NCBI GenBank assembly: GCA_964016885.1
Contig: OZ024742.1
Location: 36,146,001-36,210,000, forward strand
DNA: 64,000 nt
From: Eledone cirrhosa
Lineage: Eukaryota
Direction of reading: 5' to 3'
Position 1 is the stretch's first letter. Every line of letters begins with the position of its first letter. The notes beneath the pieces were generated by a model. That model was not told where the DNA came from and made no database searches. It worked only from the letters and a program-made list of their open reading frames with translations. A program made the position numbers and the translations under genes. Positions 345 to 64,000 of this stretch are shown piece by piece.

Positions 345-1195
<851 letters not shown>

Positions 1196-2682: not shown

Positions 2683-2751
2683 GAAACGAAGCGGGCTGTG
2701 TGTTTACTGTAAACAATGTTTAAGATGGCAATATGGACGAAGCAAGAGAAG

Positions 2752-2828
2752 AACCCCTTCATCAGCTGTTAGCTGCAGATCACGGATGTTTCGGCGCTTA
2801 AAACAGGACATCGGAAGCGATCAGCAGC
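2752..2828 (-). ncRNA. Candidate non-circularly permuted hammerhead ribozyme (family P)
   Basis: Minus strand: gcugc-u-gauc gcuucc gaugU-C cuguu uuaagcgcc GAA-Acauc cgu gauc-u-gcagc u aacag CUGAUGA agggguu. Stem III gaugu/acauc, stem I cuguu/aacag. Confidence 0.6.
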
Positions 2829-3257
2829 GCGCCCAAGGCTTTTAATCGATCAAAAGGCCATGAGGGAAAGAAAAGAAAAAAATAGTGAGGAGAGAGGAAG
2901 AAGGAGGAAAAAACGAAGTAAACAAACCGAATGGAGGGGGGACACAGGACAATGGAATATGCAAGGGAGTAACTGAGGAAAAAATAGAATAAGTTACAAC
3001 GAACTGATTTGACATAAGTCTTGTGGTGCAATAACTAGGAGCGGTGTAGTTCCCTGCGATCTCAGCAGAGTGAGGGTAGAGAGAGAGAGAGAGAGAGAGA
3101 CGGAGCAACAGGAAGTGAGAGGGAGAAGGGAAAGGGAGATAATCCGAATTATATATATATATATATATGTATATAAGTTTATCCGGGTTCAATGGGGGGT
3201 AACCACAGTAAGTAAGGTACTCAATACAAAGCAGAGTATAAATGCTTAATATAGAAA

Positions 3258-7800: not shown

Positions 7801-7863
7801 TATTTTATTATATATATTTCAAGGGTACCAAGACACATTGGTTCGCTTTCCTCAGATAAAATA
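7801..7863 (-). ncRNA. Type I hammerhead ribozyme (H2)
   Basis: Mirror copy of 7991-8053 in the left arm. Confidence 0.75.
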
Positions 7864-14645: not shown

Positions 14646-16390
14646 CATGGTGGCTGCCAACTCGTTTTCGAGTACGGCCACTACTTTATATCCATGTAGG
14701 AGAACCCCTACCGATGCGCTGAACGAATGTGACTTTTTAGTCCAGCCAGCGACTTGAAAACTCTGGCACAAAGACTACACTTGTGACCATTATTGACACA
14801 TAGTGCAGGGCCCATGGTACCATGTGATGACAAGTGCAGAGAGATCTCCAGATATAAAGCAATGCCTGTGCTGTGAAGCTTTTATAGTGAGCAAAGGCAC
14901 TGCACAAAGCCAGTCCCACTCTCTTAACTAAGATGATATTTACCAAAAAGAAGAACAAGTCAACATCATTGGATACCATCAGGGTTGCAGGTGTTATATC
15001 AGAGTTTTCCTTCTCCTAGAATTCTGCCTTGACAAAGGCTAAGGGGTCATCTCTCCCGGTGATTTTGGATGGCCATTGAGTCTTAAGAGCTCCTTTGCCC
15101 TTTGACAGGTTTTGTTTTTAGTCCTGCAGGATATCCAAAGTCACCCTCCTCACTAAGAAACCTTGGTGGGGTTGCCAGTTTAGTCGCCAACGACCCGACC
15201 ATGAGTCAGGTTGTACTGGGATACATGTTACCAGTAGCACGAACTGGTGACCTGACAAAAAGAAGAACAAGTCAACATCATTGGATACCATCAGAGTTGC
15301 AGGTGTTATATCAGAGTTTTCCTTCTCCTAGAATTCTGCCTTGACAAAGGCTAAGGGGTCATCTCTCCCGGTGATTTTGGATGGCCATTGACGCTAAAGA
15401 GCTCCCCTGCCCCTTGACAGGTACATATATACACACACATATATACATACATACATACATACATACATATCTATACATGGTGGCTGCCAACTCGTTTTCA
15501 AGTACGGCCACTACTTTATATCCATGTAGGAGAAGTCCTACCGATGCGCTGACGAGTGTGACTTTTTAGTCCAGCCAGCGACTTGAAAACTCTGGTACAA
15601 ACACTACACTTGTGACAAATATTGACACATAGTGCTGGGCCCATGATACCATGTGATGACAAGTGCCGAGAGATCTCCAGATATAAAAAAATGCCTGTGC
15701 TGTGAAGCTTTTATAGTGAGCAAAGGCACCGCACAAAGCCAGTCCCACTCTCTTAACCAAGATGATATTTACCAAAAAGAAGAACATGTCAACATCATTG
15801 GATACTATCAGAGTTGCAGGTGTTATATCAGAGTTTTCCTTCTCCTAGAATTCTGCCTTGACAAAGGCTAAGGGGTCATCTCTCCCGGTGATTTTGGATG
15901 GCCATTGACTCTTAAGAGCTCCTTTGCCCTTTGACAGGTTTTGTTTTTAGTCCTGCAGGATGTCCAAAGTCACCCTCCTCACCAAGAAACCTTGGTGGGG
16001 TTGCCAGTTTAGTCGCCAACGACCCGACCATGAGACAGGTTGTACTGGAATACATGTTACCAGTAGCACCAACTGGTGACCTGACATACATATATATATA
16101 CATACATACATACATATACACACATACATACATATATATATACATACACATATATATACATACATATATATATACATACATATATATACACACATACATA
16201 CATATATACATACATACATATATATATAGATACATATATATATACATACATATACACATACATACATACATATATATACATATATATATATATATACATA
16301 CATACATACACATACATATACATACATACACATATACATACATATATATATACATACATACATACATACATACATACATACATACATACA

Positions 16391-16424
<34 letters not shown>

Positions 16425-17438
16425 CATACATACACATATATATACATATATACATATACATACATACATACATACATACACATATATACATACACATACA
16501 TACACATATATATATATACATACATATATATACACACACATACATATATATATATACATACATACATACATATACATACATACACACATATACATACATA
16601 TACACATATATATATAGATATATACATATATACATATACATACATACACATATATATAGATATATATATACACACATATACATACATACACACATATATA
16701 TATACATACATACATACATATATATACATACATACATACACACATATACATACATACATACATACATATACATACACACATATATACATACATATACATA
16801 CATATATATACACACATATATATATATACATGGTGGCTGCCAACTCGTTTTCGAGTACGGCCACTACTTTATATCCATGTAGGAGAACCCTTACCGATGC
16901 GCTGAACGTGTGTGACTTTTTAGTCCAGCCAGCGACTTGAAAACTCTGGTACAAACACTACACCTGTGACAATTATTGACACATAGTGCTGGGCCCATGG
17001 TACCATGTGAGGACAAGTGCAGAGAGATCTCCAGATACAAAGCAATGCCTGTGCCGTGAAGCTTTTATAGTGAGCAAAGGCACTGCACAAAGCCAGTCCC
17101 ACTCTCTTAACCAAGATGATATTTACCAAAAAGAAGAACAAGTCAACATCATTGGATACCATCAGGGTTGCAGGTGTTATATCAGAGTTTTCCTTCTCCT
17201 AGAATTCTGCCTTGACAAAGGCTAAAGGGTCATCTCTCCCGGTGATTTTGGATGGCCATTGACTTTTAAGAGCTCCTTTGCCCTTTGACAGGTTTTGTTT
17301 TTAGTCCTGCAGGATGTCCAAAGTCACCCTCCTCACCAAGAAACCTTAGTGGGGTTGCCAGTTTAGTCGCCAACGACCCGACCATGAGACAGGTTGTACT
17401 GGGATACATGTTACCAGTAGCACCAACTGGTGACCTGA
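14646..17438 (-). mobile_element. Cluster of three ~610 bp RTE-derived non-autonomous elements (family A): 14646-15257, 15476-16086, 16829-17438, plus partial 15258-15422
   Basis: Highly similar copies, same orientation, separated by (CATA)n-like tails; 3' part encodes a relic of the RTE zinc finger. Confidence 0.85.
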
Positions 17439-17828: not shown

Positions 17829-19633
17829 GTGATGGCTGCCCCCTCGTTATCGAGTATGGCCATTGCACGAGGAGAAAGAAAAAAAAAAAAAAATAAAAAT
17901 AAATAAATTAATTAATTAATTAATTAATTAATTAAAAAAAAAATAATAATAATAAATAAATAAAAATTAAAAAAAAAGGAAATTATATATATATATATAC
18001 ATATACATACATATATACACACACACACACACATACTCACACACACATATACACACACATACATTAATAACAATAATAATAATAATAATAATAATAACAA
18101 CAATAATAATAACGACAACCACAATAATAATATACATATACATATATATACACACACACGCACACACATAAGCATATCTACACACACACACACACACGAT
18201 AGCAACTAACAGCGCTGCGATCGAATGTGGCTTTTTAGCCCAGCCAATGATCTAAAATGTCTTGCACAGAGTCGGCAACCAAAACATTCACTGGGAATAG
18301 TCGGCTGTGGTTGGAGTTCGTGTACTTTTGCATGTCGCTTGAGCCCTCCTGCTGATTTACATTCTCTACCACATGTTTGGCAAGCATGATCAATAGCATC
18401 TCCAACAGCAGCCTGGTAGTCAACCACTGGTCTTACTTTATGACTGCGAAGATGACTTTCGAGTCCAGCTTTGCTTAGGCAGAGTCTCGCACATACGCTG
18501 CATGTCAGCACCATAGGAGGACCCTCGCCGTCTGGAAGTGCAACAGCAATGCCCTTCCTCACATCCCGCTTTACTTTCTCATATGCGATTCGAGATGCCT
18601 CAAAGGCAACTTTTCCCTCATATACAGTCTTTCTCCATTTATTACGATCAGCAGCAATATTCTCCCATGTATCAGCAGAGATGTTAGCGTCTTTCAGAGA
18701 GGCTTTCAAGGAATCCTTATACCTCTTCTTTGGTTTATGTGGCGGTCGTTTTCCTTTAACCAACTCTCCATAAAAGAGTTGTTTTGGTATTCTAGAATCC
18801 TTCATCCTGGCAAGGTGAGCACTCCAACGGAGTCGTTGCTTAAGCACAAGAGCTTCTATACTGTCACACATAGAGCTTTCCAAAATCTCGACATCACTGA
18901 TGTGGTCCCTCCAGTGAACGCCATGGATCCGTCTGAGACACATCTGATGGAAACGCTCCAATTGCTTAAGGTGGTGTCGATATGTGACCCAGGTCTCGCA
19001 GGCATAAAGAAGACAAGATAGCACATATGCCCTGTACACCTTTACCTTTGTCCTCCTGCATATGTCTCGCCGACCCCAGAGTCGCCTTTCTAGCTTTCCG
19101 AAAGCATCACTTGCTTTCCTAATCCTAAGTGAGATTTCACCGTCAAGGTTGCTGTATCGATTGACAGTGCTTCCCAGGTAGACAAACTGATCAACCACTC
19201 CAAGTCGTTTGCCAAACACATAGATGTTTGGTTCAGTGTACTGCTTACCAGGGGCAGGTTGGTACATGACGACGGTTTTCTTGAGACTGACAGTCAGACC
19301 TAGGGCAGTGCAAGCGTCACAAAATGCATTCAAAATGTGCTGCATATCACTCTCTGTGTGCGCTACAAGATCGCAATCATCTGCATACAAGAGATCTCTT
19401 ATGGTTGATGTAAATACCTTTGTCTTCGCAGCAAAGTGCCTGATGTTAAATATGCTGCCTGAGGTTCGATATCGGATGTAAACACCATGCTCGCAATTCC
19501 TGAATGCAATACAGAAAACCATTGCAAAGTATATGGCAAACAGGGTCGGTGCTGGAATATCCCCCTGTTTCACTCCATTTTTTACTGAGATAGGCTCCGA
19601 CATGTTACCCCCGACAACAACAACAGCGGCATC
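17829..19633 (-). mobile_element. 5'-truncated RTE-clade LINE with microsatellite-rich 3' UTR
   Basis: ORF 18206-19603; 3' terminal motif tcgtgcaatggccatactcgataacgagggggcagccatc then (tatg)n; linking that motif to this ORF is an inference. Confidence 0.8.
18206..19603 (-). CDS. RTE-clade reverse transcriptase C-terminal half plus three C2H2-type zinc fingers
   Basis: GVKQGD, LLYADD, FVYLGS, LLYACETW, LRWSAHLARM motifs; CxxC..SxxGLxxH x3; open frame but truncated. Confidence 0.9.
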   Translation of the reverse strand: MSEPISVKNGVKQGDIPAPTLFAIYFAMVFCIAFRNCEHGVYIRYRTSGSIFNIRHFAAKTKVFTSTIRDLLYADDCDLVAHTESDMQHILNAFCDACTALGLTVSLKKTVVMYQPAPGKQYTEPNIYVFGKRLGVVDQFVYLGSTVNRYSNLDGEISLRIRKASDAFGKLERRLWGRRDICRRTKVKVYRAYVLSCLLYACETWVTYRHHLKQLERFHQMCLRRIHGVHWRDHISDVEILESSMCDSIEALVLKQRLRWSAHLARMKDSRIPKQLFYGELVKGKRPPHKPKKRYKDSLKASLKDANISADTWENIAADRNKWRKTVYEGKVAFEASRIAYEKVKRDVRKGIAVALPDGEGPPMVLTCSVCARLCLSKAGLESHLRSHKVRPVVDYQAAVGDAIDHACQTCGRECKSAGGLKRHAKVHELQPQPTIPSECFGCRLCARHFRSLAGLKSHIRSQRC

Positions 19634-19991
19634 AAAAGATTAAAAAAAAAAAAAAAAAACTCAAAATAACAAAACACACACACACACACACACGCACACA
19701 ACACAACAACAACATCAACTGCCACCACCACCACTACCGCCGCCGCCATCACCATCACCAGTGACCGGGCCTTAAGAAAACAATTTTAATAATAATTTTT
19801 CTGATTTTGGCACGGATCCAGCGACTAGTCCAGCGCATCACTGGTACTCTCTTTTGTTGACTCCGTGGGGATGAAAGGCAAGGTTGACCTCGGCGGGATT
19901 TAAGCTCAGAGCGTGGAGAGCCATAACTCTATGCTGTAAAGCAATTATAATAATACTGGACTGTACATACATACATACATATATACATACA

Positions 19992-22900
19992 TTCCATCAG
20001 TCAACGCGATCAGTCGCATATTTTGGCGTGGGAGACTATTTATTAAATTTAAGATGAATACTATCTCTGACAGTAATGCCACAACTACAGCCAGGTTGAA
20101 TAACTGGTTATTCTTCTAACTATCCCTTCTGAAGACACCTTTTATTCGAATTCGTAGAGATATCCGACTAAATACATAATTCATTTTACAAGGATTTGCT
20201 ACAAACAGTATGGCTGAACACAACATCAACAAGAAAATTAAGGAAGTATCGAAGACAAATAACAAAGAAGGTAATCAAACTTTATTCAGTTGTAGCTACA
20301 GAAGAAACCGAAATTATAAATCGCATTTCTCTTGGAGTTGCGAACTTAATAATTGTTTCTACTTTAGGCACAAGGCCAGCAATTATCCAGTGCATTACTG
20401 GTACTTTATTTTATCGACCCCGTAAGGATGAAAGGCAAAGTCAACCTCGGCGGGATTTGAACTCAGATCGTAAAGGGACGTAACTATGCTGGAAAGCATG
20501 GCGTCCGACCCTCTACCGATACTGCCAATGATTTATTTAATTGTTATAAAATGGCAAAAAACAATCCCTCCATTGGCTATATGAATAGAATGAAGCTACA
20601 CTGGGACGAAATGCACCCAGAGCTAAATTATTTCACAGCGAAACAATTACGCCAACAAGCGACGTTTGTTGAACGTAAAAATAAGATAAATATTATTAAT
20701 TGTAAGTCCCCCACAACAAACATGGAATCAACAACACGTGCTACAGATCGCCATGCTACTAGACTTCCTAGCAGCCAGGTCGAACAGCGTCTTGAAACAA
20801 CTATGCCTGTAAGAAACTTGACACCACCTGTACCATCTAAGTCTACCTCGAATGCTGGGGAAAACACTATCGATAATAATAATAATCGAATAAATGTAAC
20901 ACCACGTATACCATCCGAGTCTACCTCGACTGTTGTGGAAAATATTATCGATAATGATAATCAAAAGTATAAACAATTGAAAATTTCCCTCAACGAAATC
21001 TTCCAGAGAGAAATTAACTCATGTATAAATATCTCTCTGGCTGAACGTGTTAAAATGACAATGGTGAATAAAAAACCAAATAATGAAATACTACGTGTTA
21101 ATGACGAAATAGGGGATGAATATTTACAACGGATAAAAACCCCAACATTTTGGCAAATCAACGCCTGTTTATATGCCTTACCTGGTGATAGCAGAGATAT
21201 TAACAAGAACAAAACACCACCAAAAATACCATCATATATAACTAAAATAGAGTGCTGACCTACGAAAAAAAATAGGACATGTGACAATGCTCTTTACATG
21301 CAAACAAACACAAAAAAACTCACTCCTCACCAACAAAGAGTGAAAAATGAAATAGAGACGATGTTTGGTAACAGTAGAACCAGAACTCTCCAATATAAGC
21401 TGATCACCCTCAAACAAGAATTGAGAGCTGTTAGCGAAAAACGCCGCTACCTGAAGAAGGTAGATGAGAGAAAAATGCTTAATAAAAGATTCAGACGAAA
21501 CCAAACATCAGTATATAGAGATATGAAGGGCAAAATAATAAGTGTCACTGAGGCCCCATCCCAGAAAGACATAGATTCCTTTTGTAGGAAAATATTGGGT
21601 GAAAAGAAGAATTTCAACCAAGATGCATTGTGGCTAAGAGAAATCCGAAAGAACTATTGCTCCTACACTACAACAAAAACATACGAAATAAGTGAGGGTA
21701 CTCTTGAGACTGTGATAGGAAAACTCCAAGATAAGAAAACACCAGGAAGAGACATGATAGTCGGCTAATGGTACAAAAAACTAATATTCTATCGGAGGTA
21801 TCTTACTGACCTCTACCAACAAGTTCTTAAGGGAGATACACTTATACCAGAATGGTTGACATTAGCACAAACGTTACTGGTCCCCAAGAACAAAGACACC
21901 CACTTGGCAAAAAACTACCGACCCATTGCATGCCAGAACCTGATGTATAAGATGTATACAGCCTGTCTGAACCTATTCCTCCAAGATCACTGTGAAAATA
22001 ATAACATCATCACAGATGAACAAGCAGCTGGAAAGAAAAGGGTTTGGGGATGTGCTGAACAACTCCTAATCAACAAAACTGCGATGTCGGAGGTGCGACA
22101 ACTTAGGAGGAATATGACTACAGTCTGGCTGGACTACAAGAAAGCTTTCGATTCTGTTCCCCACTCTTAGATGATAGAGGCCCTCCAACTTGCTAAAGTC
22201 CCAGACATTGTCAGAGCCATAGAGAGGCTGTCTTCTTCTTGGGCTACTATCCTAAAGACAGAGAGGGACGACTCTATTTTCACTGATAAAATAAAATATT
22301 GCAGGGGTATATTTCAGGGGACAGTCTCTCTGTGATATTGTTCATCTTGTCATTAAACCCCTTGTCCTTTCTGCTCAAGAAATGTGAGGGATACATCATT
22401 GGCTCACAGGAGGACAGAAATACGAACCTAACCCATAACTTCTTTGTGGACGATCTGAAACTCTATGCCAAGAACATGGATGGGATGAAGAAAAATCTTG
22501 ACTTGGTTACAACGTTCTCAAAGGATATAGGAATGGAGTTTGGACAAGATAAATGCTAATACAGGACTGTAAAGCGGGGAAAAACAACAACCCAATCTAG
22601 CAACATTGTCATCAATGGTCTAAATGTTTCACCGATATCTGATGAGGACTGCTACAGATACCTGGGGATAGATGAGAACATATCCTATAATGGTATCTGT
22701 AATAAAGAACGCGTAAACAGGGAATACTACACCCGATTAAGAAAGATCTGATCATCGGAACTCTCTGCGCAAAACAAAACAGTGGCTCACAATGTGTTTG
22801 CTGTGCCTGTCCTAACACCAACGTTTGGAATACTTAATTGGACGATAGACGAAATCCGAGCAGTTGATGTTGGAACTCGAAAAATACTGAACAACACCGG

Positions 22901-24235
22901 AAACTTCCACATCAACAGTAACATAGACCGCCTTTACTTGAAACGTAAGCAGGGAGGCAGAGGCCTAACATCAGTCCAGACAACATTTGAATGTCGCATC
23001 ATATCTCTCCGACAACATCTACGAACCTCGAAGCGTAGGAGCCCGCTTCTCGAGCAAGTCTATCTGGATGAAACAGATAAGATCATGAGAGTTGGGAAGG
23101 AACTCCTTGAGAGATATTCCCTGTGTGATAATCAAAACTCACACCCAGGGATGTCGCTCAGAATTATCGCAGTGAATCCATGGATGAAAAACTGCATGCC
23201 TATCAGCAAAAAATCATGCATGGATATGTTGCCAGGAAGCTCCAGAGTGAGAGTAATATAGATAAGGAAAGTAGTCTATCTTGGACCAACAACCGCTATA
23301 TTGTCACCCACTTTGAAGGATACGCTTTTGCAATCCAAGAACAGGAGATTAGCACGAAATACCTGATTCACAAAAGAGATAGGCATGCAGGCAAAACACC
23401 TAGATGTGATAACAAGTGCAGACTCTGCAGAACTAATATCGAGGATATCACCCATGTCATCAGCAGCTGCCCAAAGATGTCATCGCGGTACTATCTACCT
23501 ATGAGGCATGATGTAGTGGCCAAAACACTGTACAATGCAATTCGTAAAAAAGATAGCCCCGATAATAAACACATTAAAAGCTACAACAATGTGGAAGACA
23601 TCATGTACATAATATAAAAGAGTACTGGTGGAATGTTCCAGTAAAAACCCCAATAAAATGCAGGCATAACAGACCAGATATTATGATATGGGACAGGGAG
23701 AAGAAAACATGCACAGTAGTGGAAATTAGCTGCCCAGCAGATGCCAATATAATATCAAAGATTAGTGAAAAGGAGAATATTTATGCAGAACTGATGAGAA
23801 ATCTGCAGATACTCCACCCTGATTACACCTTCAGATTTATGCCTGTGATTATTGGGGCACTGGGATATGTTAGTAACTGCCTCAATACAAATCTTGAGAA
23901 GCTAGGCTTCACAGGAACAGAAAGAACACAACTAGTTAGGAAATTACAAGTACAATCCATTAATGGAACAGTAAAAATATGTAAAACATTCCAAAAATGT
24001 TGCATCTAATAACTGCATATACACATGTACAGATACAAAGCATATACATCCACACATACAACTCAAAACATACACATCCACACATACAATAACATCCATA
24101 TCTACACATGCATGCATACATACATATATCCCTAGTTGATGTTGTGTAAATTCCAATGAGAGAGTCTTGTGTCTATGTTAGAAACCGACTCTCTCTCTAT
24201 TGGTAAAACTTTGTGAAATTATAAAACCAGAAGAA
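19992..24235 (+). mobile_element. Near full-length R4/Dong-clade (RLE) non-LTR retrotransposon, inactivated
   Basis: KNYRPIAC, WLDYKKAFDSVPH, GDSLS, FFVDDLKLY, CRLC..H....C knuckle, RHD, RPDIMIWD..VVEISCP nuclease; stops and frameshifts; (CATA)n on both sides. Confidence 0.9.
20351..20528 (-). mobile_element. tRNA-SINE inserted in the Dong-like element
   Basis: Same SINE consensus as 9162-9342. Confidence 0.85.
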
Positions 24236-25799: not shown

Positions 25800-26665
25800 C
25801 ATGGTGGCTGCCAACTCGTTATCGAGTACGGCCACTACTTTATATCCATGTAGGAGAACGCCTACCGATGCGCTGACGAGTGTGACTTTTTAGTCCAGCC
25901 AGCGACTTGAAAACTCTGGTACAAACACTACACTTGTGATAATTATTGACACATAGTGCTGGGCCCATGGTACCATGTGACGACAAGTGCAGAGAGATCT
26001 CCAGATATAAAGCAATGCCTGTGCCGTGAAGCTTTTATAGTGAGCAAAGGCACTGCACAAAGCCAGTCCCACTCTCTTAACCAAGATGATATTTACCAAA
26101 AAGAAGAACAAGTCAACATCATTGGATACCATCAGGGTTGCAGGTGTTATATCAGAGTTTTCCTTCGCCTAGAATTCTGCCTTGACAAAGGCTAAGGGGT
26201 CATCTCTCCCGGTGATTTTGGATGGCCATTGATTCTTAAGAGCTCCTTTGCCCTTTGACAGGTTTTGTTTTTAATCCTGCAGGATGTCCAAAATCACCCT
26301 CCTCACCAAGAAACCTTGGTGGGGTTGCCAGTTTAGTCGCCAACGACCCGACCATGGGACAGGTTGTACTGAAATACATGTTACCAGTAGCACCAAGTGG
26401 TGACCTGACATAGTTTTCCTTCTCCTAGAATTCTGCCTTGACAAAGGCTAAGGGGTCATCTCTCCCGGTGATTTTGGATGGCCATTGACTCTTAAGAGCT
26501 CCTTTGCCCCTTGACAGGTTTTGTTTTTAGTCCTGCAGGATATCCAAAGTCACCTTCTCACCAAGAAACCTTGGTGGGGTTGCCAGCTTAGTCGCCAACA
26601 ACCCGACCACAGGACAGGTTGTACTGGAATACATGTTACCAGTAGCACCAAGTGGTGACCTGACA
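25800..26665 (-). mobile_element. RTE-derived family A element (25800-26410) plus duplicated 5' part (26412-26665)
   Basis: Same sequence as the 14.6-17.4 kb copies. Confidence 0.85.
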
Positions 26666-32091: not shown

Positions 32092-32140
<49 letters not shown>

Positions 32141-32459
32141 TTTCTTTCGCACTCTTGGTCAGGCTGGTTCGCTTTTTTCTCTCTCTCGTCTACGATTTCA
32201 CAGAACTTATGTTCACCGAATTCACAGACTAGATTCCTCCCGTTAGACCTGTACGGAATTCCTTCCTTGCTCACATTCCAACCAGGTTTGATGGTCTTTA
32301 TTCTCTCTCGTTCACGATTTCACCGAACTTATATTCATGGAAATTTGGGACTTGACTCGTTCTTCCTCACTTTTCGTTGCTTCACCATCTTTGTTTGTTT
32401 ACACTCTCGTGTCCCCTTTATTTACGTGTCCCAACGACTTTTTTTAACCGTTGCTCGCA

Positions 32460-32530
32460 CCAACCGGAGGTATATGATCTTTAAAGCGATGAAATACCAA
32501 TGATGGTTGGAAGATCACTGATGAAGGACT
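32460..32530 (+). ncRNA. Candidate non-circularly permuted hammerhead (family Q)
   Basis: ccaacc gga gguaU-A ugaucuu uaaagcgau GAA-Auacc aaugau gguugg aagauca CUGAUGA aggacu. Confidence 0.6.
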
Positions 32531-33098
32531 AACTTTATTCATATGTAACCCATTAGTAACCACGCAGCACGTTTATTCTCATATTTACACATATATTTTT
32601 CCCCGCTGTGACCCGTCTATCTCGTTCTTACTGCTCCTTCTTTCTCTGTATCTTCACCCTCTCTAACAGTCACACTCTCTCTCTGTTAGCCTCTTCCTCA
32701 TCCTTCACTCACTCACTCTCTGTTACTACCTCTCCTCCTTCTCCTTCTTCCCGTTTGACCTGTGCGTAATTCTTTTCTTTCGCACTCTTGGTCAGGCTGG
32801 TTCACTTTTTTTCTCTCTCGTCTACGATTTCACAGAACTTATGTTCACCGAATTCACAGACTAGATTCCTTCTTCCTCCCGTTAGACCTGTACGGAATTC
32901 CTTCCTTGCTCACATTCCAACCAGGTTTGATGGTCTTTATTCTCTCTCGTTCACGATTTCACCGAACTTATATTCATGGAAATTTGGGACTTGACTCGTT
33001 CTTCCTCACTTTTCGTTGATTCACCATTTTTGTTTGTTTACACTCTCGTGTCCCCTTTATTTACGTGTCCCAACGACTTTTTTTAGCCGTTGCTCGCA

Positions 33099-33169
33099 CC
33101 AACCGGAGGTATATGGTCTTTAAAGCGATGAAATACCAATGATGGTTGGAAGATCACTGATGAAGGACT
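33099..33169 (+). ncRNA. Candidate permuted hammerhead (family Q), second tandem copy
   Basis: As 32460-32530; stem I strand uggucuu keeps pairing through G-U. Confidence 0.6.
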
Positions 33170-33287
33170 AACTTTATTCATATGTAACCCATTAGCAACC
33201 ACGCACCACGTTTATTCTCATATTTACATATATTTTTTTCCCCGCTGTGACCCACCTATTTCGTTCTTACTGCTTCCTCTTTCTCTG

Positions 33288-33380
<93 letters not shown>

Positions 33381-43416: not shown

Positions 43417-43529
43417 TCTGTGTGTCGGACATTTAATTATATATGTATTTTGTTGTCATGCGCTTTCTCGAATTTTGTTTTCATCTTGAAAAAAATTAAC
43501 CCCAGTACACCGTTTGAAACTGTGACTCC

Positions 43530-43599
43530 GAATGGATCAGCAGTACCGTCGGTAGTGGTCGAAACTGTGTACATCCATTTCGACGGCTGAAGACAGCAG
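43530..43599 (+). ncRNA. Candidate non-circularly permuted hammerhead (family R)
   Basis: gaauggau ca gcagU-A ccgucg guagugguc GAA-Acugu guac auccauuu cgacgg CUGAAGA cagcag. Confidence 0.6.
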
Positions 43600-44525
43600 A
43601 TATTTTGAACCTGTTGCCAATTGTACAATATTATCTGTGATGCACACAGCTCTATTCATATATCAAGGCGACAATTCTCCCTTCTTATCACGTGACACTA
43701 TTGTCTTGTTTTTTCGTCTCTGTGTTTTTTTTTCGTGAGTGTATTTTTATTGGCAATTATGAGCCTCCCAAAATATGAGAAAATTTGTTTCAATACACGA
43801 TTTTACATTAAGTATCTTGCAAAGCAAATACAAAAACAATATGTCTTAGAGAACCAGTCCTTTAAGTGTCATTATTTCATTAGATAAATGAATAAATGAA
43901 AAAAGAAATAAATTAAATAAATGAATAAATAAATAAATATCAATAAATTTCATGTCTTCTTGACTGGTGGAATTTAAAGTGCATTTTAAATAACTTTATT
44001 TTTAAATTTTCGTTTACTCATAAAAAAAAAATTCAAAATATCAAAAATGTTCAGTGTCTTCTATATTTTTTTTATGAGTTGTTTAGATTTAGTTACTGTT
44101 ATTTGTACCTATTCATCTTCTTTTTTTTGTTGGAAGAGGGGGGGAGTAAAATAAAGAGTGTTTTATGTAAGGTCAGGTTTAATACGATGTTGATTCATGG
44201 AATATATTTGATGAATGGAGAATAAGGTTGTTTATTAAAGCTAAAGTTTCACAAATGTTTGGGGGCTTGTAAGATTGCGATGGAGAAGAAATTGAGGGCT
44301 TTATATTTATATTTTTATTTTCACCTTATTTGATTATTTACTTTTTTCTGTTTGTTTGTCGTTGTTGCTATTATTATTTTGTTTTTGTTGTGTTTTTGTT
44401 TTTTTGGTGTTTTTTTTTTGTTTTTTGGGGGGAGGGGTGAATTTATTAATACTGTTAGTGTAGAATATTTGTTCTGTGATGTGACACTCGTGTCAAGTGG
44501 TGCTACTGACAGATGTGTATATATG

Positions 44526-45999: not shown

Positions 46000-46038
46000 T
46001 GAACAAGTACTTTCATGCTTTCGCAATCTTCAGGTTCA
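46000..46038 (-). ncRNA. Minimal type I hammerhead in the Penelope 3' region
   Basis: ugaac CUGAAGA u[ugc-gaaa-gca]u GAA-AguacU-U guuca, sense to the PLE ORF. Confidence 0.85.
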
Positions 46039-47333
46039 CATTCTGTGGTGACAGTCAAGTTTGCAATTTTCAACTGTAATGAGATGGGTAAATTTTGTGC
46101 CTTATATACATTGAAAAGTGGCTACAGAATGCTAAATCTTGCAAACTGTATTTCGACCAATCGGTGTGTAGTTTCACTGGATTACTAAAGCTGATTGGTT
46201 TAGGCGTCACGGTTGGTTGAGCATGTCTAACGACTACTAATTGATCCTATCCAAAACATCAATTGTTTTGCTATTTTTAGAAATGATGAAAATAGCCTTT
46301 TCTAGTAATCATCACCATCAACATCACTTTTATTAATATTATTGTTGTTGTTGTTAGTGGTCGTAGTCATAGTCATAGTAGGATTAATAACCCATTATTA
46401 TTGTTCATTTAGCTTGGGTTGGAATTTATCAATAACATTTTTTTCTTTGATTTTTCTCTTGATTTCACTTGGGCTGTGTAATTGTAGAATGAAAATATTA
46501 TAAATATTATCTGACCACTTGTTGCTAGATGGATACTCAGGGGTATCTGACGGACATTTGGGTCTCTGATTTGCTGTCGGTGTACCCGTGCACGTTCCGA
46601 TAGTGCATTTCCAGTTTGACCGACATATAGTTCTTCACAATTCGGGCATTTAATGCAGTAAATTAGATTTCTGCTTTTGCAGTTCATATTTGCATTTGGG
46701 AATATTTTTCCAGTTTTTGTTTTCATATATTGACCGGCGTGTATGGATTGACATGTGCCACAGCGACTATCATTGCATTTAGATACAGTGAATGATTGGT
46801 CTTTGTTGTTAAGGTCTTTGCTTTTGTTAGTAATTGCTTCAAATATTTCGACTGTCTTTTACTAAGAGTCAAAGATCGATCTGTGATTAAGCCTTTTAAT
46901 TCATTACTTTGAGCAATGATCGGTAGGTTTGCTTTGGCAGTGTTGAAGATATTCTGGTGACATGGGTTGTGTGTCATTATAAATGGTATGACCAGTTCTT
47001 GGTTTCTTCTTGCTTGGGTTGTCCTTCCTTGGTTTCTTCTTCCTTGGGGTGTCCTTGGGTTGTATTTTTATAGCTCGCTGTATGCCATTTTCTATAAGTA
47101 GAGATGGGTATTTTTGTTTGAGCAAAAATTCTCTTAGTTCTGTTAGGCGTTTGTTCCTGGTATTTTTATCTTCTACAATGGTACAAATTCTTCTGACTAG
47201 GCAGTATGGGATGTTGTGATTTGTATGAGGTGGATGGCACGACTTAAAATTCAGATATTGATGGGTGCCTGTGTGTTTATAATATATATCCGTGGTAATG
47301 GTGCTGTCGTTTTTTATTATCATTATATCTAGG

Positions 47334-47513
47334 TGGATTGGCAGTATTGGTAGAGGGTCGGGCGCCATGCTTTCCAGCATAGTTACGTCCCTTTACGATC
47401 TGAGTTCAAATCCCGCCGAGGTTGACTTTGCCTTTCATCCTTACGGGGTCGATAAAATAAAGTACCAGTAATGCACTGGGATAATTGATGGCCTTGTGCC
47501 AAAAGTAGAAACA
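47334..47513 (+). mobile_element. tRNA-SINE inserted in the Penelope RT
   Basis: 12-bp TSD attatatctagg. Confidence 0.9.
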
Positions 47514-49011
47514 ATTATATCTAGGAATGGTAATTTGGTCCTACTCATCTCTTTTGTGAATTGGAGAGATGGGTGTAGGTTATTCAGGAGGATATTGAAC
47601 TCATCCAGAGTATCTAGAGATTCTGTCCAGATGATGAAACAGTCGTCAAGGTATCTCTTCCAAGATTTTTCAATGTACTTTCTAAAGTCAATACTATATT
47701 TTTCCTCTATTTCTTGGTAGAGTTGTTGTTCTAAGTATCCCATTACAGAGTTCGCGTAAACGGGAGCAAACTTCGTTCCCATCGCTGTGCCTCTAATTTG
47801 GATGTAATTCTTTCCATTGAAGAAGAAAGTGTTGTTTTCCAGAATAAATTTGACTGCGTGTAATATAAATGGCGCTGTGAATCTGATGGGAATCACTTCT
47901 CTATGTTTTTCCACCCAGTATTTAACCGCCTTTATTCCTAAATCATGTGTAATATTGGTGTAAAGGCTTACCACATCAAAACTACGTAGAAGTGAATTCG
48001 TTTCCGTGGTTTTGTGAAGATGGGACAAGAAGTCGATATCATCCCGGATGAAACTTCTATGAAACATAGTGGTTTCAAAATAATGTCAACAAAATTGCTT
48101 AGACGGTGGGTAGGGCATGTTGGACCAGCTATAATAGGTCTAAGTTTTAAGTTTTTTGGGTGTAGTAATTTAATGTACTCACAGTTTTGTTCTTTTACTG
48201 TCAGTTGTATTTCTTTTGACTTATGAACTTTCGGTAGGCCATACAGGTTGCTGGGTTTTGGCTCAAAATTGGTGATGTAGTCTCTTTCCTTATCAGTGAG
48301 TTGTGGTATTTTGAAGCCAGGTTGTTGATCTTCTTCATGATGTTGTGGTCTATATTTGACGGTATTTCATGATAGAATGTTGTGTCTTTCAGTTGTTCCT
48401 CAACCAAATCGTTGTAGTATTCAGCATCTATTATAACAACTGCACCCCCTTTATCTGCTTGTTTAATTATTATTGTTTTATCATTTTTTGTTTTCTTTTT
48501 AATATGATTGAAGCCGATGTTTATATTTGCTACGCAGATGCAATACATCTGGAACTCGTTTGTGCATAGTCGAGTCATCATGCTGGTTTATTAAAAAAAA
48601 AGTTGCTGGTTTATTAAAAAAAAAAAAAAAAAAAAAAAAGGACGCTGTCCATTCAATTTTCAAACATCAGATGACTGACGATTTAAAAAAGGTGCAATTC
48701 AAATGCGTAGGACTGATGGATGAGAAATGATCTAAATATGGCGCATACAGGTGGTTGAAGGGTAGATTTGTAAAGAAACTCCTCGTTGTGGACACCTGAG
48801 CTAAGAGAATTGGTAAATTAAATTACTGATAATAGTATCAAATTTAGATTTAATATTACAGCTTATAACACGTGATGGAGACGTAGGGACACCGTCACTA
48901 CATAAGGCCTGTCCCTTATTTACATATGTATTATATAATAGAATGACATCAATGCAAAACACTTTATCTTCAAGAAAATGTGTGTTCGCACTAGTGTATA
49001 TATATCGGGCA

Positions 49012-49725: not shown

Positions 49726-50149
49726 AAATATTTATACATATTTGTATAAAGCAATGCTTGAAGCGAAATCTTATTTCTATTCTATCATAAGTTGAGCCAA
49801 CTTATGCAGCTTCATATGTAAATGAGATTAATCACCTCATTTACACAGACGAGAAAACTATATATTCTCGACTCTTTTCAGCAGTCGCAAGCGGTGGGAG
49901 GGACCGTCCTGAGGAAGGCCAGCCAAGCCTGAAATGCATAGACTGTTGTCCCCCTTGTTTCTGCTGGACACCCCGTGGAATGAAAAAGAAAACCCCAGAA
50001 AGGGCGGAGGAACCCAGGAGTGTCAACGACCTACACGAGCATGAAAGTAACCAAGCAAAATGATCTTTTCTTTCCTGGTTATAGAGGAAATTATTACTCT
50101 AAGATCCTGGTAGGAACCTTAAATCAATTCTTAACTATTGGTTATAGTT

Positions 50150-52932: not shown

Positions 52933-53870
52933 AAAAATGGAGTGCTGCGTGGTTTCACATGGGTTACATATGAATAAAATTAGTCCTTCATCAGTGATCT
53001 TACAACCGTCATTGGTATTTCATCGCTTTAAAAATCATATACCTCTGGTTGGTGCGAGCAATAACTAAATAAAGTTATTAGAACAAGTAAAATAGGGTGA
53101 AGCGAGCGAGACATGTAAACAAACAAAGATGGTATTGCAACGGAACGATAGGAAGAGACAAGTACATGATATCTTTAAGCTTAAGCTTGGTGAAATCATG
53201 GACGAGAGATACAGACTATCCGACCTGGGTGAGATGTGAGCGAGAAAAGGATTTCATACAGGTCAAACGGGAGGAAGTGAGAGAGGGGGAGAAGCAGAGA
53301 GTGAGTGAGTGGAAGTGTGAGGACGAGGCCAGCTGAGAGAGACTGTGACTGGCAGAGGGGGTAAAAAGAAGGTGAGAGATACAGAGAGAGTGGAAGCAGT
53401 AAGAAAGAAACAGACAATCGCAACTGAGGAAAAAATATAAATATAAGAAAAATGGAGTGCTGCGTGGTTGCACATGGGTTACATATGAATAAAATTAGTC
53501 CTTCATCAGTGATCTTCCAACCTTCACTTGGTATTTCATCGCTTTAAAAATCATATACCTCTGGTTGGTGCGAGCAATAAATAAATAAAGTTATTGGGTC
53601 AAGTAAAATAGGGTGAAGCGAGCGAGACATGTAAACAAACAAAGATGGTATTGCAACCGAAAGATAGGAAGAGACAAGTACATGATATCTATAAGCTTAA
53701 GGTTGGTGAAATCATGGACGAGAGATACAGACTATCCGACCTGAGTGAGATGTGAGCGAGAAAAGGATCTCACACAGGTCAAACGGGAGGAAGTGAGAAA
53801 GGGGGAGAAGCAGAGAGTGAGTGAGTGGAAGTGTGAGGAAGAGGCCAGCTGAGAGAGAGTGTGACTGTCA
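52930..53870 (-). mobile_element. Partial tandem (~515 bp period) of a family Q subfamily
   Basis: Reverse-complement similarity to 32.4-32.8 kb; permuted motifs at 52982-53052 and 53497-53568. Confidence 0.85.
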
Positions 53871-53911
53871 GTTTCGATTTCATCTATTTTCCTTATATAT
53901 ATATATATATA

Positions 53912-58390: not shown

Positions 58391-59134
58391 AAGGGGCCAT
58401 GTCCGGTTATACATTTCATTCATAAAATGTGTTTCTTAACCCAAATATTATTGTGTAGAACGTACTCCTTCTTATTTTCATTTCATTTTCTTCTGCCGTG
58501 TAGTTTCCTCATTGAAACAAGTGAACAGAGGGGGACAATAGACGACAGGCCAGATTAAAACAAACCGTCATAAAAGATTTGAAAGTGTGTAACCTCTAAA
58601 TATCATTCGATTGAGCTGTAATTTGGCACGTTTCTTTGTTTTATCAACTCAAACACGCGCGTAATCAACAGAAACTCTTTGGTACTATTTGTTCTGCATA
58701 GACACTATCAATCTAAGAGAGAGGAGGCTTTGAAGCTGATCATCAAAAAAACTTCCAAGATTAATGATGCAATATAAATGTCAAAGATCTATCAACTATA
58801 AAGATCTTTGAGTACAGGGAGGCTACGAAAAGTTTCAACAACAGAAACTTTTAACGGCTTTATAGCTGCCCTTGTTTACCATTTTTTATTTGTCTTCCTT
58901 TCTTCGCTTCTTCTACTTCCCACACACACATATATTTGGAAGATCACTGATGAAGGACCACTTTATTCATATGTAACCCATTTGCAACTCCGCAGCACGT
59001 TTATTCTCATATTTACACATATTTTTCCTCCCGCGGTGACCCGTCTATTTCTCTCTTACTGCTTCCTCTTTCTCTGTATCTTGTGTTGTTCAATTTCTAA
59101 CTAACTAAATAATATATATATATATATATATAAG

Positions 59135-59808: not shown

Positions 59809-62800
59809 TTTCTTTATTAACCACAAGGGTTTACATAAAGTAGACATTAAGGACAGTGCAGGACAATGCAGGACGGTACAAATGGGCATTTCTGCGTGTA
59901 AAAAACAAAAACAGAGGATGTAACAAAAAATAACAATGAAAAATTCCCCAATAGGGGGGAGACTTCGGAGGGACATTTGTGGAGAAAGCCCAGTAAAAGA
60001 CCACAGTGGCCCTGACCACCAGGGCAAGTGCCCTCTCCCAGTTTTCCACCTTTAATTTACAGACACATACTCAGAGAAGGCCCATTTATTCGGGCCATAC
60101 TTGTTTCTCTCACCAATCTTTCAACAAAATGCTGGGAAGAGAGCACTTCCCTCTCTACCCTGATTTTCCTTTTCAAATGAAATTTGAAAAAGTTAATCAG
60201 GGCATCACCGAAGAGGTAAGTGCTCGTCTTCAGCCCTTTCAAACGTGTCCACCATACTATCTCTTTCGCCATGGCCACCAGACAGATAAAAACTGCCTGC
60301 CCTTCCAGGCTAAAGGAAGGGGGCGGGGCAATCCTCACGATGGACTCAGCTGATAGCTGGATCCGTCCTACACGTGACAGCAGGTGTTCGACATAAACCC
60401 ACAAGTCACTGGACGAGTGCGTGCAGGACGGTTTCGTCGCCCTGTGCGCATCTCGGACATGCCCGGCTGACGGCACCTCCATGCCTGTAGAGTTTATCCC
60501 GAACTGGCAAAGCTCCTCGGTAGCACTGCCAGGCCAGGGATTTCTGGAAGTTGTCCATAGGCCCCGGCCCGAAAGTCCTTCCGAAGAGATTGGCTAGTTG
60601 ATTTTCGTCGACGCCTAGAGTTTCTCCAAGTACGTCGTCGCTCTTCCCCTCCACTAATCCCCTATAGAACGCCAAGGTGGAGTTTCCACCGATCACATTG
60701 CCCGATTGGTCGAGGGCTGTGAGCGCCTGAAGACATTCCAGTCTTCAAGCGCTCCCTCTCGGTCTTCGCTTGACCCAGGACTGCAGCTCCGTCAAGGAGA
60801 CGAGCTGGGGAAAAACGTGTCTAGCAAACGGCGACCACACCTGATCACCGTCGAGGAAGAGGTGGAGATGTCGTAGCCTGAGCGCGTGTCTGCGCATCAT
60901 CAGCCACGGCATGCCCAGCCCTCCACGTAGCGGGTGTTGACAGCAGATGAACCGCCTGACCATCGGAGCGCGTCCCTTCCACAAGAAGCGAAAGAGCAAA
61001 CGCTCCAGCGCAGCCAGGCGGGGCTTAGGACAAGGTACGACGGTCAGGCGGTAGTAGATGACGGATGCGATGTACGCATTCGCCACCTCCGCTCGACCTT
61101 TCAGGGATAGCTTCCTCTCGGCCCATTTCTGGGTGAGAGAAGCCACCCTGCTCGTCACCTCGTCCCAGTTTTTGTCCGTCTGGAGGTCTGGACCGAACCA
61201 GACCCCTAGCAATTTAACCGGTCCGTCCGTCCAGCGCCCGACGACGCTGTTGGACGGCATGGACCTGCCTCTCCAGGTGCCGAGCTGCAGGCCCACTGAC
61301 TTTTCCTGGTTGATCATTGCTCCTGTCACCGCTTCGTATTCTCTTAGTGTAGTGCCGATCGCCTCGATGTGTTTGGCGTTCGACACCACTACGGTGACAT
61401 CGTCGGCATATGCTGACACGGATCTTCCGCATCCTAGTTCGTTCGGGACCCCCCTCAACGTCTCCAGTTTGTGCAGTAATGGCTCGAGAGTCAATACGTA
61501 CAATAGGGACGAGAGGGGACATCCTTGGCGGACCGAGCGCATGATGTTGAACGGTTCCGAAAGGTGACCGTTCACTCTCACTACAGAGCAGATGTCGCTG
61601 TGCATGGCAGCGATCCAGCCTCTGAAGACGGGCCCAAAGCCAGCCGCCCTCAGGACTGCCGCTAGGTAACGATGGTCGACCCTATCGAAGGCTTTCGACT
61701 GATCTAAATTGATCAAAGACCCACCCGTGCCAGGTTCCCTAGCTACCCTCTCTACGATGTATCGCATGAGGTGGAGGTTGTCGTGGATGGATCTGTCGGG
61801 AATGGCGCATGTCTGTGCCTCTCCCACCAGACCACCAACGACAAGCGCCAACCTCTTTGCTAGCACCTTGGCCAAAATCTTGAACTCTGTGTTTAGCAGA
61901 ATGATGGGCCTAAAATTATCTATGTTATCCCCCTTGTTCGGATCCTTTCTCAGCAGTGTCACTGCTCCTCGGCTCACAGAGCTGGGAATTCTCCCGTTCT
62001 GTTGCCAGTTGCAGTAGACGTCCGCCAAGAGGCCTCCGAACAAGTTTGGCATTTGTACGTAAAGTTCATAGGGCAGACCATCCAAACCAGGCGATTTACC
62101 CCTTGTGCAACTAGTCATTGCATCCCGTACTTCAGCGGTTGTTATCGGCTTTTCGCAACACTCCGCCTCAGTGGCCGAAAGCCGCGGCAGTCCGTCGAGG
62201 TAGACACTAAAGTCCATCCCTCGATCCGGCCCGCCACTGCCCCCGAACAGTTGAGCGAAGTGTCGCTGAAAAGCTTCACACATTTGCCCGGGATCGAGTA
62301 GCATGCGCCCGTCGTGGTCCACCAAAGACCGGATCGTGGCTTTGTTGCCACGACGCGCCTCCGCCACTCGGGCCCATTGAACGGCTTTCGTCCCCTCGTG
62401 TCTGAGAGCACGCACCCTAGCTCTGACAACGCAGCCTTCGTGCTTTGCATTGAAGAATTGGTCAAGGGCCAATTTCGCCGCAAGTACGTCGGTCGCGATG
62501 CCTTAGCTAAGCGCCTCATCTAATTTTCTAACTAATTCTCCCTCTGCTCTATTTTTCTCTATTGCTAAAGTCTTAATAAACCTAATGGACTCTATTCTAA
62601 TTGCTCTTTTCAGAGCAAACCACCACTTGTTGTTGACGATGGCCCCCGTCAACGCCCGCTTAACTAGTTCGCTAATCCGGTCTCTGTAGGCCTTGCGCGC
62701 TGGTAAGGACGCGTTTAGCTTCCAGTAGCCGGGTCCTCGTCTATGAAGCCTATCTAAGTCAAGCACACAGATCACGAATTTGTGGTCCGTGTAGCTGACT

Positions 62801-64000
62801 ATCTTGAATTGTGGACAGCCTATGCTAGACCTATCTATTTCCCTACAAAATACTCTATCTAGATATGATCTGGATGACCCTATGCGATTTGTCCAAGTCC
62901 ACATTGGTACATTCGGGAAATCCATTCGGTACCTGTCAGACAGTTCAAAACGTCTGAGCAGGTTGGTGAGACTCTTTGACCCTCATTCCCTATCCACTAA
63001 TCCCACACAATCCCAGCGTGCATCTAAGATCCCGTTCCAGTCGCCCACTAACACTAAAGAGCGGGACGTTCCAAGAAAGGTCTCCAGACGCCGGAAGAAA
63101 TCAGGCCGCCCTGCTCCTGTCGGGGCATAGACGGCCACTAACCTGAAATCTTGCCCGTCTCCGCTGATCACGTCCAGCACCACCAACTTACCTTCTGGGT
63201 CCAGGAAGATGGCCCGTATGGCAAGATCCAAACCTCTCCGAAAAAGCACAGCAATTCCTCCCTCCGATCGCGGACGGCTGGGAGATGCGTACACATCGTA
63301 GCCGCCGAAGATCGGTGCGAAAGCCTGTGCTTCGGAGATTATGGTCTCGCTGATAGCCACTACATTTATGTTTAGTGACCTGAGATCGTTGAGCAGGTGG
63401 CCCTGCTTCCATGACGACCCCAAGCCACGCGCATTTATGCTGCCTATTCTGAGTGAGGTCATGTTGAAAAGGAGTGGAAAAGATGGGAAAGACCACTTAC
63501 ATTACTTCTCGTAGGGGAAGGACGGTTTTTCCATCCTTTTCACTGCTTGTGGCCTCCTCAGGAAGGATGTCCTTATAAATCCTCCTGGAGAGTGCTTGTT
63601 GGAAGTCTCCGATGTCTTTGGGGAATTTTTGTTTTAGTGTCATGTACGTTTTCTGTGTGATGCGAGTGATTTGTATGTGTGGAGGTGGTGTGAATTTTTG
63701 GGTTGTTGTGTAGTCTTTTTCTGTGATGCTGGTGTTGTGTTGGATGTAGTGTAATAATTGCTTGTTGTTCAAATTTAATGCTGTGTAGTGTGTATCGTTT
63801 TGGTTGTTTTGTTTTGTTTGCGTTTGTTGTGGGTTTGTTTCTGTTTCGCATTTTGGTGACTTTTGTGGTGTGGTGGTGGTGGTGTTGGGGTTAATGATGG
63901 TGATGGTGTTGGTGTTTGGGTTGATGGGGTTGGTGATGCTGGTGTGGATGGTGGCATATCTGTCCTAACTTTTTTGTTTGTTAATTTATTTGTTTCCCTC
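59807..64000 (-). mobile_element. Tx1/L1-clade non-LTR retrotransposon, frameshifted
   Basis: APE (SINARGL, VYAP, LVGDWN, YLDRV, TDH), RT (KSPGLDG, LDQSKAFDRV, VRQGCPLS, AYADD), C-terminal CPRC..ETVLH; AATAAA + (tta)n tail; runs off the window. Confidence 0.92.
60745..62472 (-). CDS. Tx1-like ORF2 reverse transcriptase segment
   Basis: 575-aa open frame with complete RT motifs; adjacent domains lie in other frames. Confidence 0.85.
   Translation of the reverse strand: MALDQFFNAKHEGCVVRARVRALRHEGTKAVQWARVAEARRGNKATIRSLVDHDGRMLLDPGQMCEAFQRHFAQLFGGSGGPDRGMDFSVYLDGLPRLSATEAECCEKPITTAEVRDAMTSCTRGKSPGLDGLPYELYVQMPNLFGGLLADVYCNWQQNGRIPSSVSRGAVTLLRKDPNKGDNIDNFRPIILLNTEFKILAKVLAKRLALVVGGLVGEAQTCAIPDRSIHDNLHLMRYIVERVAREPGTGGSLINLDQSKAFDRVDHRYLAAVLRAAGFGPVFRGWIAAMHSDICSVVRVNGHLSEPFNIMRSVRQGCPLSSLLYVLTLEPLLHKLETLRGVPNELGCGRSVSAYADDVTVVVSNAKHIEAIGTTLREYEAVTGAMINQEKSVGLQLGTWRGRSMPSNSVVGRWTDGPVKLLGVWFGPDLQTDKNWDEVTSRVASLTQKWAERKLSLKGRAEVANAYIASVIYYRLTVVPCPKPRLAALERLLFRFLWKGRAPMVRRFICCQHPLRGGLGMPWLMMRRHALRLRHLHLFLDGDQVWSPFARHVFPQLVSLTELQSWVKRRPRGSA

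Follow-up and report, generated by a model that had tools for sequence, protein, structure and literature searches.

The window considered here, a 64,000-nucleotide stretch of the Eledone cirrhosa genome (assembly GCA_964016885.1, contig OZ024742.1, positions 36,146,001 to 36,210,000 of the forward strand), carries at 43472..43722 (+) a decayed copy of a repeat that we refer to as family R; a profile built without this copy recovers it with an E value of 3.6e-48. The damaged remnant of a hairpin, V (43503..43523, where the 5' strand of a further helix, IV, has been lost), is followed on the same strand by a 5' strand for stem II that lies upstream of the cleavage-site block (43524..43529; five of six pairs kept, one G-U) and by the 5' strand of an outer helix that extends stem III (43530..43537). 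Block S, a stem III strand plus GUA (43540..43545), comes next, with cleavage predicted 3' of A43545 by analogy with known hammerheads, and then the stem I strand 3' of the predicted cut (43546..43552). Block G (43555..43568) contains the 3' strand of stem II (43555-60), GAAA (43561-64) and the other stem III strand; the 3' strand of the outer helix (43573..43580), the stem I partner strand with the CUGAAGA core (43580..43593, CUGAAGA itself at 43587-93) and the 3' strand of helix IV (43594..43602) complete the layout. In intact copies the 5' flank is the partner of this last strand, which here is mutated and unpaired. The outer helix has 8 bp (43530-37/43573-80), stem III pairs 43540-44 with 43564-68, stem I pairs 43546-52 with 43580-86 (six Watson-Crick pairs and a G-U pair), the bridge is 9 nt long, and all of the hammerhead core bases (CUGANGA, GAAA, NUH) are intact. 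A first-pass annotation of this DNA had listed an outer helix, stem III, a GUA site, stem I, a bridge, GAAA, CUGAAGA and a "mini substrate hairpin" just upstream, and every one of these parts lies where it had been placed. Positions 43425-43725 are matched without differences by one contig in three of four sequencing runs, which derive from one sample that is possibly the source of the assembly. One strand of helix IV and part of hairpin V are missing, stem I faces competition from a 7-bp hairpin, and unconstrained folding yields a z score of only -0.5 to -0.8. The window copy is old, worn and damaged and is probably inactive or slow; that it is catalytically active we regard as doubtful.

Over 43501..43599 the conserved blocks run site, GAAA, CUGANGA, i.e. 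S-G-C, which is the order of the non-circular hammerhead type SGC; the earlier reading of a permuted hammerhead whose stems are specific to its family is thus borne out, and the permutation can be named. Type SGC was named by Eckert et al. 2023 (PMC10085705), with cleavage rates of 0.007-0.19 per minute, and a premise of that paper is that CUGANGA is inseparable from the paired bases that adjoin it. A descriptor for the S-G-C order that requires stems I and III alone was run over 664 kb (the window, 200 kb of neighbouring sequence and 400 kb in scattered stretches) and found 14 matches, six of them in the window, which represent a few families and not 14 independent cases; there were none in reversed sequence, with five decoy cores or in three shuffles. 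An Rfam scan of the whole window found no family at threshold, hammerhead models included; nested models are unable to hold the S-G-C order. Stems I and III flank the site both in family R and in a second family, P, and stem II stands next to G12 only when the upstream strand completes it. An uninterrupted block C, in which a stem II strand directly follows CUGANGA, is found neither in family R nor in the 14 descriptor matches, and a helix that would join stems I and II at their far ends is absent from the top helices of our blind scans; the flanks pair as the outer helix and helix IV, in place of the stem I-II helix of type SGC.

Family R is a dispersed, old, non-coding repeat. The window copy has 39 other scored matches at 76-87% identity, among 146 candidates, and a second subfamily has 668 candidates in the 3.0-Gb assembly; we call the two subfamilies R1 and R2. 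Tandem monomers spaced 402-498 nt apart occur at six of 61 loci; like non-LTR retrozymes, the family has a hammerhead core within non-coding units repeated in tandem. Some copies are flanked by microsatellite. Of 68 copies, 21 retain every core base, and 19 of 67 have C in place of U4 (12 of 32 in R1, 7 of 35 in R2). Apart from the window copy, a covariance model of the family recovered one sequence only, a second copy of a family S (see below; E 0.27).

What, then, completes stem II? In the canonical register, with bases downstream of CUGANGA, the first pair forms in one of 32 copies and 29.6% of pairs form overall; with the register shifted by two bases the value is 60.1%, and neither register exceeds shuffles. 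A reading in which stem II is simply missing was dropped once an upstream partner strand emerged. The linker and the five-base strand before GAAA in family R match the SGC alignment of Eckert et al. 2023 (PMC10085705), and the partner of that strand lies 5' of the outer helix, at 43524-43529 in the window copy. Pairing was counted in 59 of the 68 copies, nine partial or chimeric ones having been removed by eye: 83.6% of cells are paired in the upstream stem II, 73.0% in hairpin V and 64.2% in the inner seven pairs of helix IV, and the whole structure reaches 79.2%, compared with 30-44% when the strands are slid. The first-pass annotation had left stem II open, with its conservation in genomic copies as a check; its predicted partner is the upstream strand rather than the sequence that follows CUGANGA. 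Within family R, pairing in these 59 copies is not above shuffles, whether judged by percent paired (325 of 500) or by covariation (38 of 500); the copies decay neutrally. Hairpin V has a compensation between subfamilies, U-A in 11 of 17 R1 copies and C-G in 22 of 34 R2 copies, and a blind scan of the columns places the outer helix, III, V, IV and II all among its top seven helices, along with two GU-rich alternatives.

In intact copies, hairpin V and its closing helix IV are inserted between A9 and stem II, and the core is therefore split. Helix IV begins directly after A9, and no unpaired base separates IV, V and II from one another, an arrangement that suggests a four-way junction. In family R, stem I has a rival in a 7-bp hairpin, and G8-A9 could also pair with bases before GAAA. 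The descriptor did not include an upstream stem II, and its zone was picked after the pairing had first been seen; at least four Watson-Crick pairs form there in 12 of the 14 descriptor matches, while at least three form downstream in none of them. These counts bear on a more conservative account, in which the RNAs are ordinary type SGC ribozymes whose stem II uses the bases after CUGANGA imperfectly or in a shifted register, the upstream complement being an off-switch or incidental. In family P the first base after A9 does covary with the base before GAAA (12 of 12 paired, with four pair types), the shifted register in family R is about 60% paired, and one published consensus, Naiad_Plae, has by eye a 7-bp shifted helix. 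Set against the near absence of the canonical first pair in family R, the lack of three downstream pairs in any match and the observation that the downstream bases pair instead with the 5' flank as helix IV, we consider this account improbable.

Of the hairpin just upstream (43503-43522), the first-pass annotation had supposed that it might be a second substrate module or a duplication remnant that reveals how the permutation arose. It does repeat the four base pairs of stem III, along with GUA and GAAA, and the combination is unique within the window. However, the hairpin has a 4-bp stem with a folding energy of -0.2 kcal/mol and lacks any stem I partner, 32 similar hairpins occur in the window, and the pattern is matched in nine of 100 shuffles. 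Its GUA and GAAA are seen in one of 37 family R copies, i.e. in none of the 36 besides the window copy, so the conservation that had been proposed as a check is not found. Its columns align to the conserved hairpin V, which in other copies is without these motifs and whose base happens to have the same 4-bp sequence. The mini hairpin is debris of hairpin V in a copy that has lost the interior of V and the 5' strand of IV, and a role as substrate or intermediate is highly improbable.

The same layout recurs in three other families. Family P has a young copy at 33050..33180 (+), with more copies near 32474 (+), 53554 (-), 53038 (-) and 1062 (+), and occupies the regions 32140-33290 (+), 52940-53900 (-), 820-1137 (+) and 58936-59080 (+) of the window; family Q lies at 2745..2850 (-); and family S, with a 7-bp upstream stem II, was found in two of the other stretches (L100:7420-7600, minus strand, and L147:2668-2823, plus strand). 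Family P is a tandem repeat with a unit of about 515-640 nt, its monomers lying about 630-640 nt apart, and has diverged into at least six lineages; its youth is evident from 40 of 40 scored matches, among 819 candidates, that are identical over 121 nt. Across 12 lineages or variants, 94.7% of positions in stem I, stem III, the outer helix and the 10.1-11.1 pair are paired, and in this set of 12 related sequences 10 pairs have changes on both sides, which none of 500 shuffles reaches; the upstream stem II contributes one compensation (35 of 500 shuffles). The base after A9 in family P still supplies the first stem II pair, so that the break in the core falls one step further on. The upstream stem II forms runs of 4-6 pairs in lineages P1-P4 and P6 but of only 2 in P5; the run has 5 pairs in family Q and 7 in family S, and in family R it has 4 in an R2 copy and 3 in the window copy. 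Compared with random zones, the chance of such pairing ranges from 0.0006 to 0.69 over these cases; the zone fails in P5 (P 0.69), and its pairing in the window copy is weak (P 0.19). Cognate strands give the best stem II pairing in one of 24 permutations of four families and one of 120 of five families, the latter by a margin of one pair, and helix IV ranks six of 120, which is marginal. Complementary strands for stem I, stem III, the outer helix and the upstream stem II thus recur in unrelated families, and the covariation argument of the first-pass annotation survives between families (P and Q versus R) while failing within R.

Could all of this be chance complementarity in an old repeat? 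The shuffle results within family R, the unremarkable folding score of the window copy and the lack of an Rfam match would fit. Against it stand the 14 descriptor matches with none in the controls, the covariation in family P and the recurrence of the layout in unrelated families and genomes; the controls, this covariation and the upstream stem II counts already largely refute the idea, and we give it almost no weight.

A fold that is real need not be catalytic, and the insertion pattern of family P is informative in this respect. The insertions are of Penelope type: monomers stand in tandem, 5' pieces are inverted, and the 3' ends are fixed, lie in (TA)n and fall 70-120 nt downstream of the predicted cleavage site. 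The predicted cut has the most 5' junctions, 55, compared with 17 at -15, 24 at +22, 42 at +42 and 10 at -141 as control sites, a count that is confounded by a 3'-ward gradient and by TATA microhomology at the cut, which leaves the peak suggestive only. It is conceivable that catalysis has been lost and that the hammerhead-derived fold persists as a binding or priming signal for reverse transcriptase. The fixed 3' ends and the amplification of U4C lineages in family R are consistent with such a signal, as are the break in the A9-10.1 link, which falls outside known cores, and a canonical Penelope element for which cleavage is reported to be dispensable for insertion in vitro (PMC11167929). On the other hand, CUGANGA, GAAA and UH are unchanged while all of the stems vary across families and phyla, U4C is reported to be functional in a viroid (PMC3088659), and the confounded junctions do peak at the predicted cut; we judge the loss of catalysis unlikely.

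We think it likely instead that intact members carry an active split-core hammerhead. The folded RNA of the dispersed non-coding repeat would have a hammerhead core whose parts are connected in a new order, with helices IV and V stacked so that a four-way junction could substitute for the direct A9-10.1 link, and intact members would likely self-cleave at the site that corresponds to A43545. Self-cutting would trim the RNA and possibly circularize it, and the trimmed product would be the template for a reverse transcriptase of Penelope type, likely that of a Naiad; the catalytic core, the RNA-processing function and Naiad as the mobilizing element are all what we infer from these patterns. Canonical Penelope hammerheads are described as slow or protein-assisted (PMC4209133; PMC11167929).

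A search for the coding partner covered both the neighbourhood of the repeats and the assembly. An open reading frame with an N-terminal GIY-YIG and a C-terminal reverse transcriptase is found neither in nor beside the R, P and Q loci, and in the assembly the Octopus Naiad motif from the literature has zero matches, as has each of two motifs from Naiad proteins, compared with 530 for a control pattern. The endonuclease loci examined, 46 in number, belong to C-terminal-endonuclease elements alone, none of them continuous with P, Q or R; nearby endonuclease reading frames were rejected as partners, as they belong to other elements with canonical hammerheads of their own. With no Naiad reading frame found in the assembly, family R is linked to Naiads by architecture only. 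The window also contains a broken Penelope-like element at 46409-48587 (-). Its GIY-YIG is C-terminal, its hammerhead is a canonical type I motif (near 46033, minus strand), and its reverse transcriptase motif pattern has 530 matches in the assembly. Several C-terminal-endonuclease Penelope families (L334, L335, L336 and L340) have no CUGANGA within 1.3 kb past the stop codon. Other hammerhead-like motifs in canonical order lie at 49909 (+) and at 7855/7999, 39497, 39719/39888 and 45606, several of them in inverted pairs. A repeat family of about 830 nt (14723-17205 and 25876-26519), 95-99% identical, has CUGACGA with a distant GAAA, and remnants of LINE-type reverse transcriptases occur at 18206-19639 (-), 20461-24009 (+) and 60057-63501 (-).

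By eye, the layout is also seen in published Naiad consensi. Craig et al. 2021 (PMC8557442) describe the canonical hammerhead as absent from Naiads and flag eight "half cores". By eye, at least 10 of the 54 records have, near the 3' end, the S-G-C order with an upstream stem II, and these ten come from five phyla: three Acropora, two Octopus, Naiad_Plae and Naiad-2_Movir are identified by header, and the remaining three, from a ctenophore, Clytia and a crustacean, are placed by file order alone. Most of these, again by eye, also have helix IV and several have hairpin V, and at least two more records have the S-G-C order with a stem II that is not clear. The screen used exact 7-mers within lines and covered 60 of 62, 30 of 43, 15 of 23 and 15 of 25 places. 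Nematode Naiad consensi and one from an arachnid, a spider, have the order C-S-G with complete stems, i.e. type CSG (PMC8557442 File S5), of which Eckert et al. 2023 (PMC10085705) had two sequences. In a metagenome collection, 12 of 64 parts gave 116 pattern matches, at least 112 of which are chance; one unrelated repeat, at three loci (L247:826-955, L218:1100-1225 and L276:240-350), has helix IV, hairpin V, the upstream stem II, the outer helix, stem III and stem I all present.

Taken across animal phyla, we lean toward the proposal, with slightly more reserve than for the activity of intact members, that Naiads and their non-coding passengers use active non-circular hammerheads. Nematodes and a spider would have type CSG, and other animals a seventh permutation with a split core, in which a four-way junction in place of the backbone links A9 to stem II. 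If so, the hammerhead has four movable blocks and not three, which would overturn the stated rule of three uninterruptible blocks, and it is abundant in animal genomes in split-core form. Non-circular permutations would move from rare environmental RNAs to high-copy animal retroelements, and there would be an answer to why Naiads had seemed to be without the ribozyme of other Penelope-like elements. The opening between A9 and 10.1 would also be a new insertion point for engineered ribozymes. Young identical copies of family P and the published consensi are ready constructs, making the question directly testable.

Within the open full text searched, type SGC appears only in Eckert et al. 2023 (PMC10085705), and neither SGC nor a split core is tied to Naiads or to animals. 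HRIMA-1 and its variant, described there, share with family R the S-G-C order, an intact core, stems I-III and a short stem I linker into the strand before GAAA (a 4-nt linker and a 5-nt strand). In the HRIMA-1 type, however, a 5-bp stem II is made with bases after CUGANGA and a helix joins stems I and II, whereas in family R stem II is completed from upstream and helix IV, hairpin V and the outer helix are added; HRIMA-1 type RNAs come from metatranscriptome contigs and have been shown to cleave, whereas the motifs of R, P and Q lie in animal retroelements and are predicted to cleave. With Naiads (PMC8557442), the likeness lies in the layout near the 3' end of the ten consensi, as judged by eye, and, for family P, in (TA)n targets and tandem and inverted insertions; unlike Naiads, family R has no open reading frame, and its assembly yielded no coding partner. 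The minimal hammerheads of type I that occur in Penelope pseudo-LTRs and in non-LTR retrozymes (Cervera and de la Pena 2014, PMC4209133; Li et al. 2026 preprint), for which a role in trimming and circularizing RNA has been proposed, likewise place a core in tandem repeats that are short, non-coding and derived from Penelope. Their motifs are of the circular type I, work as dimers with a weak stem III and have at most one extra base after A9, whereas family R has a long stem III and an insertion of two helices after A9.
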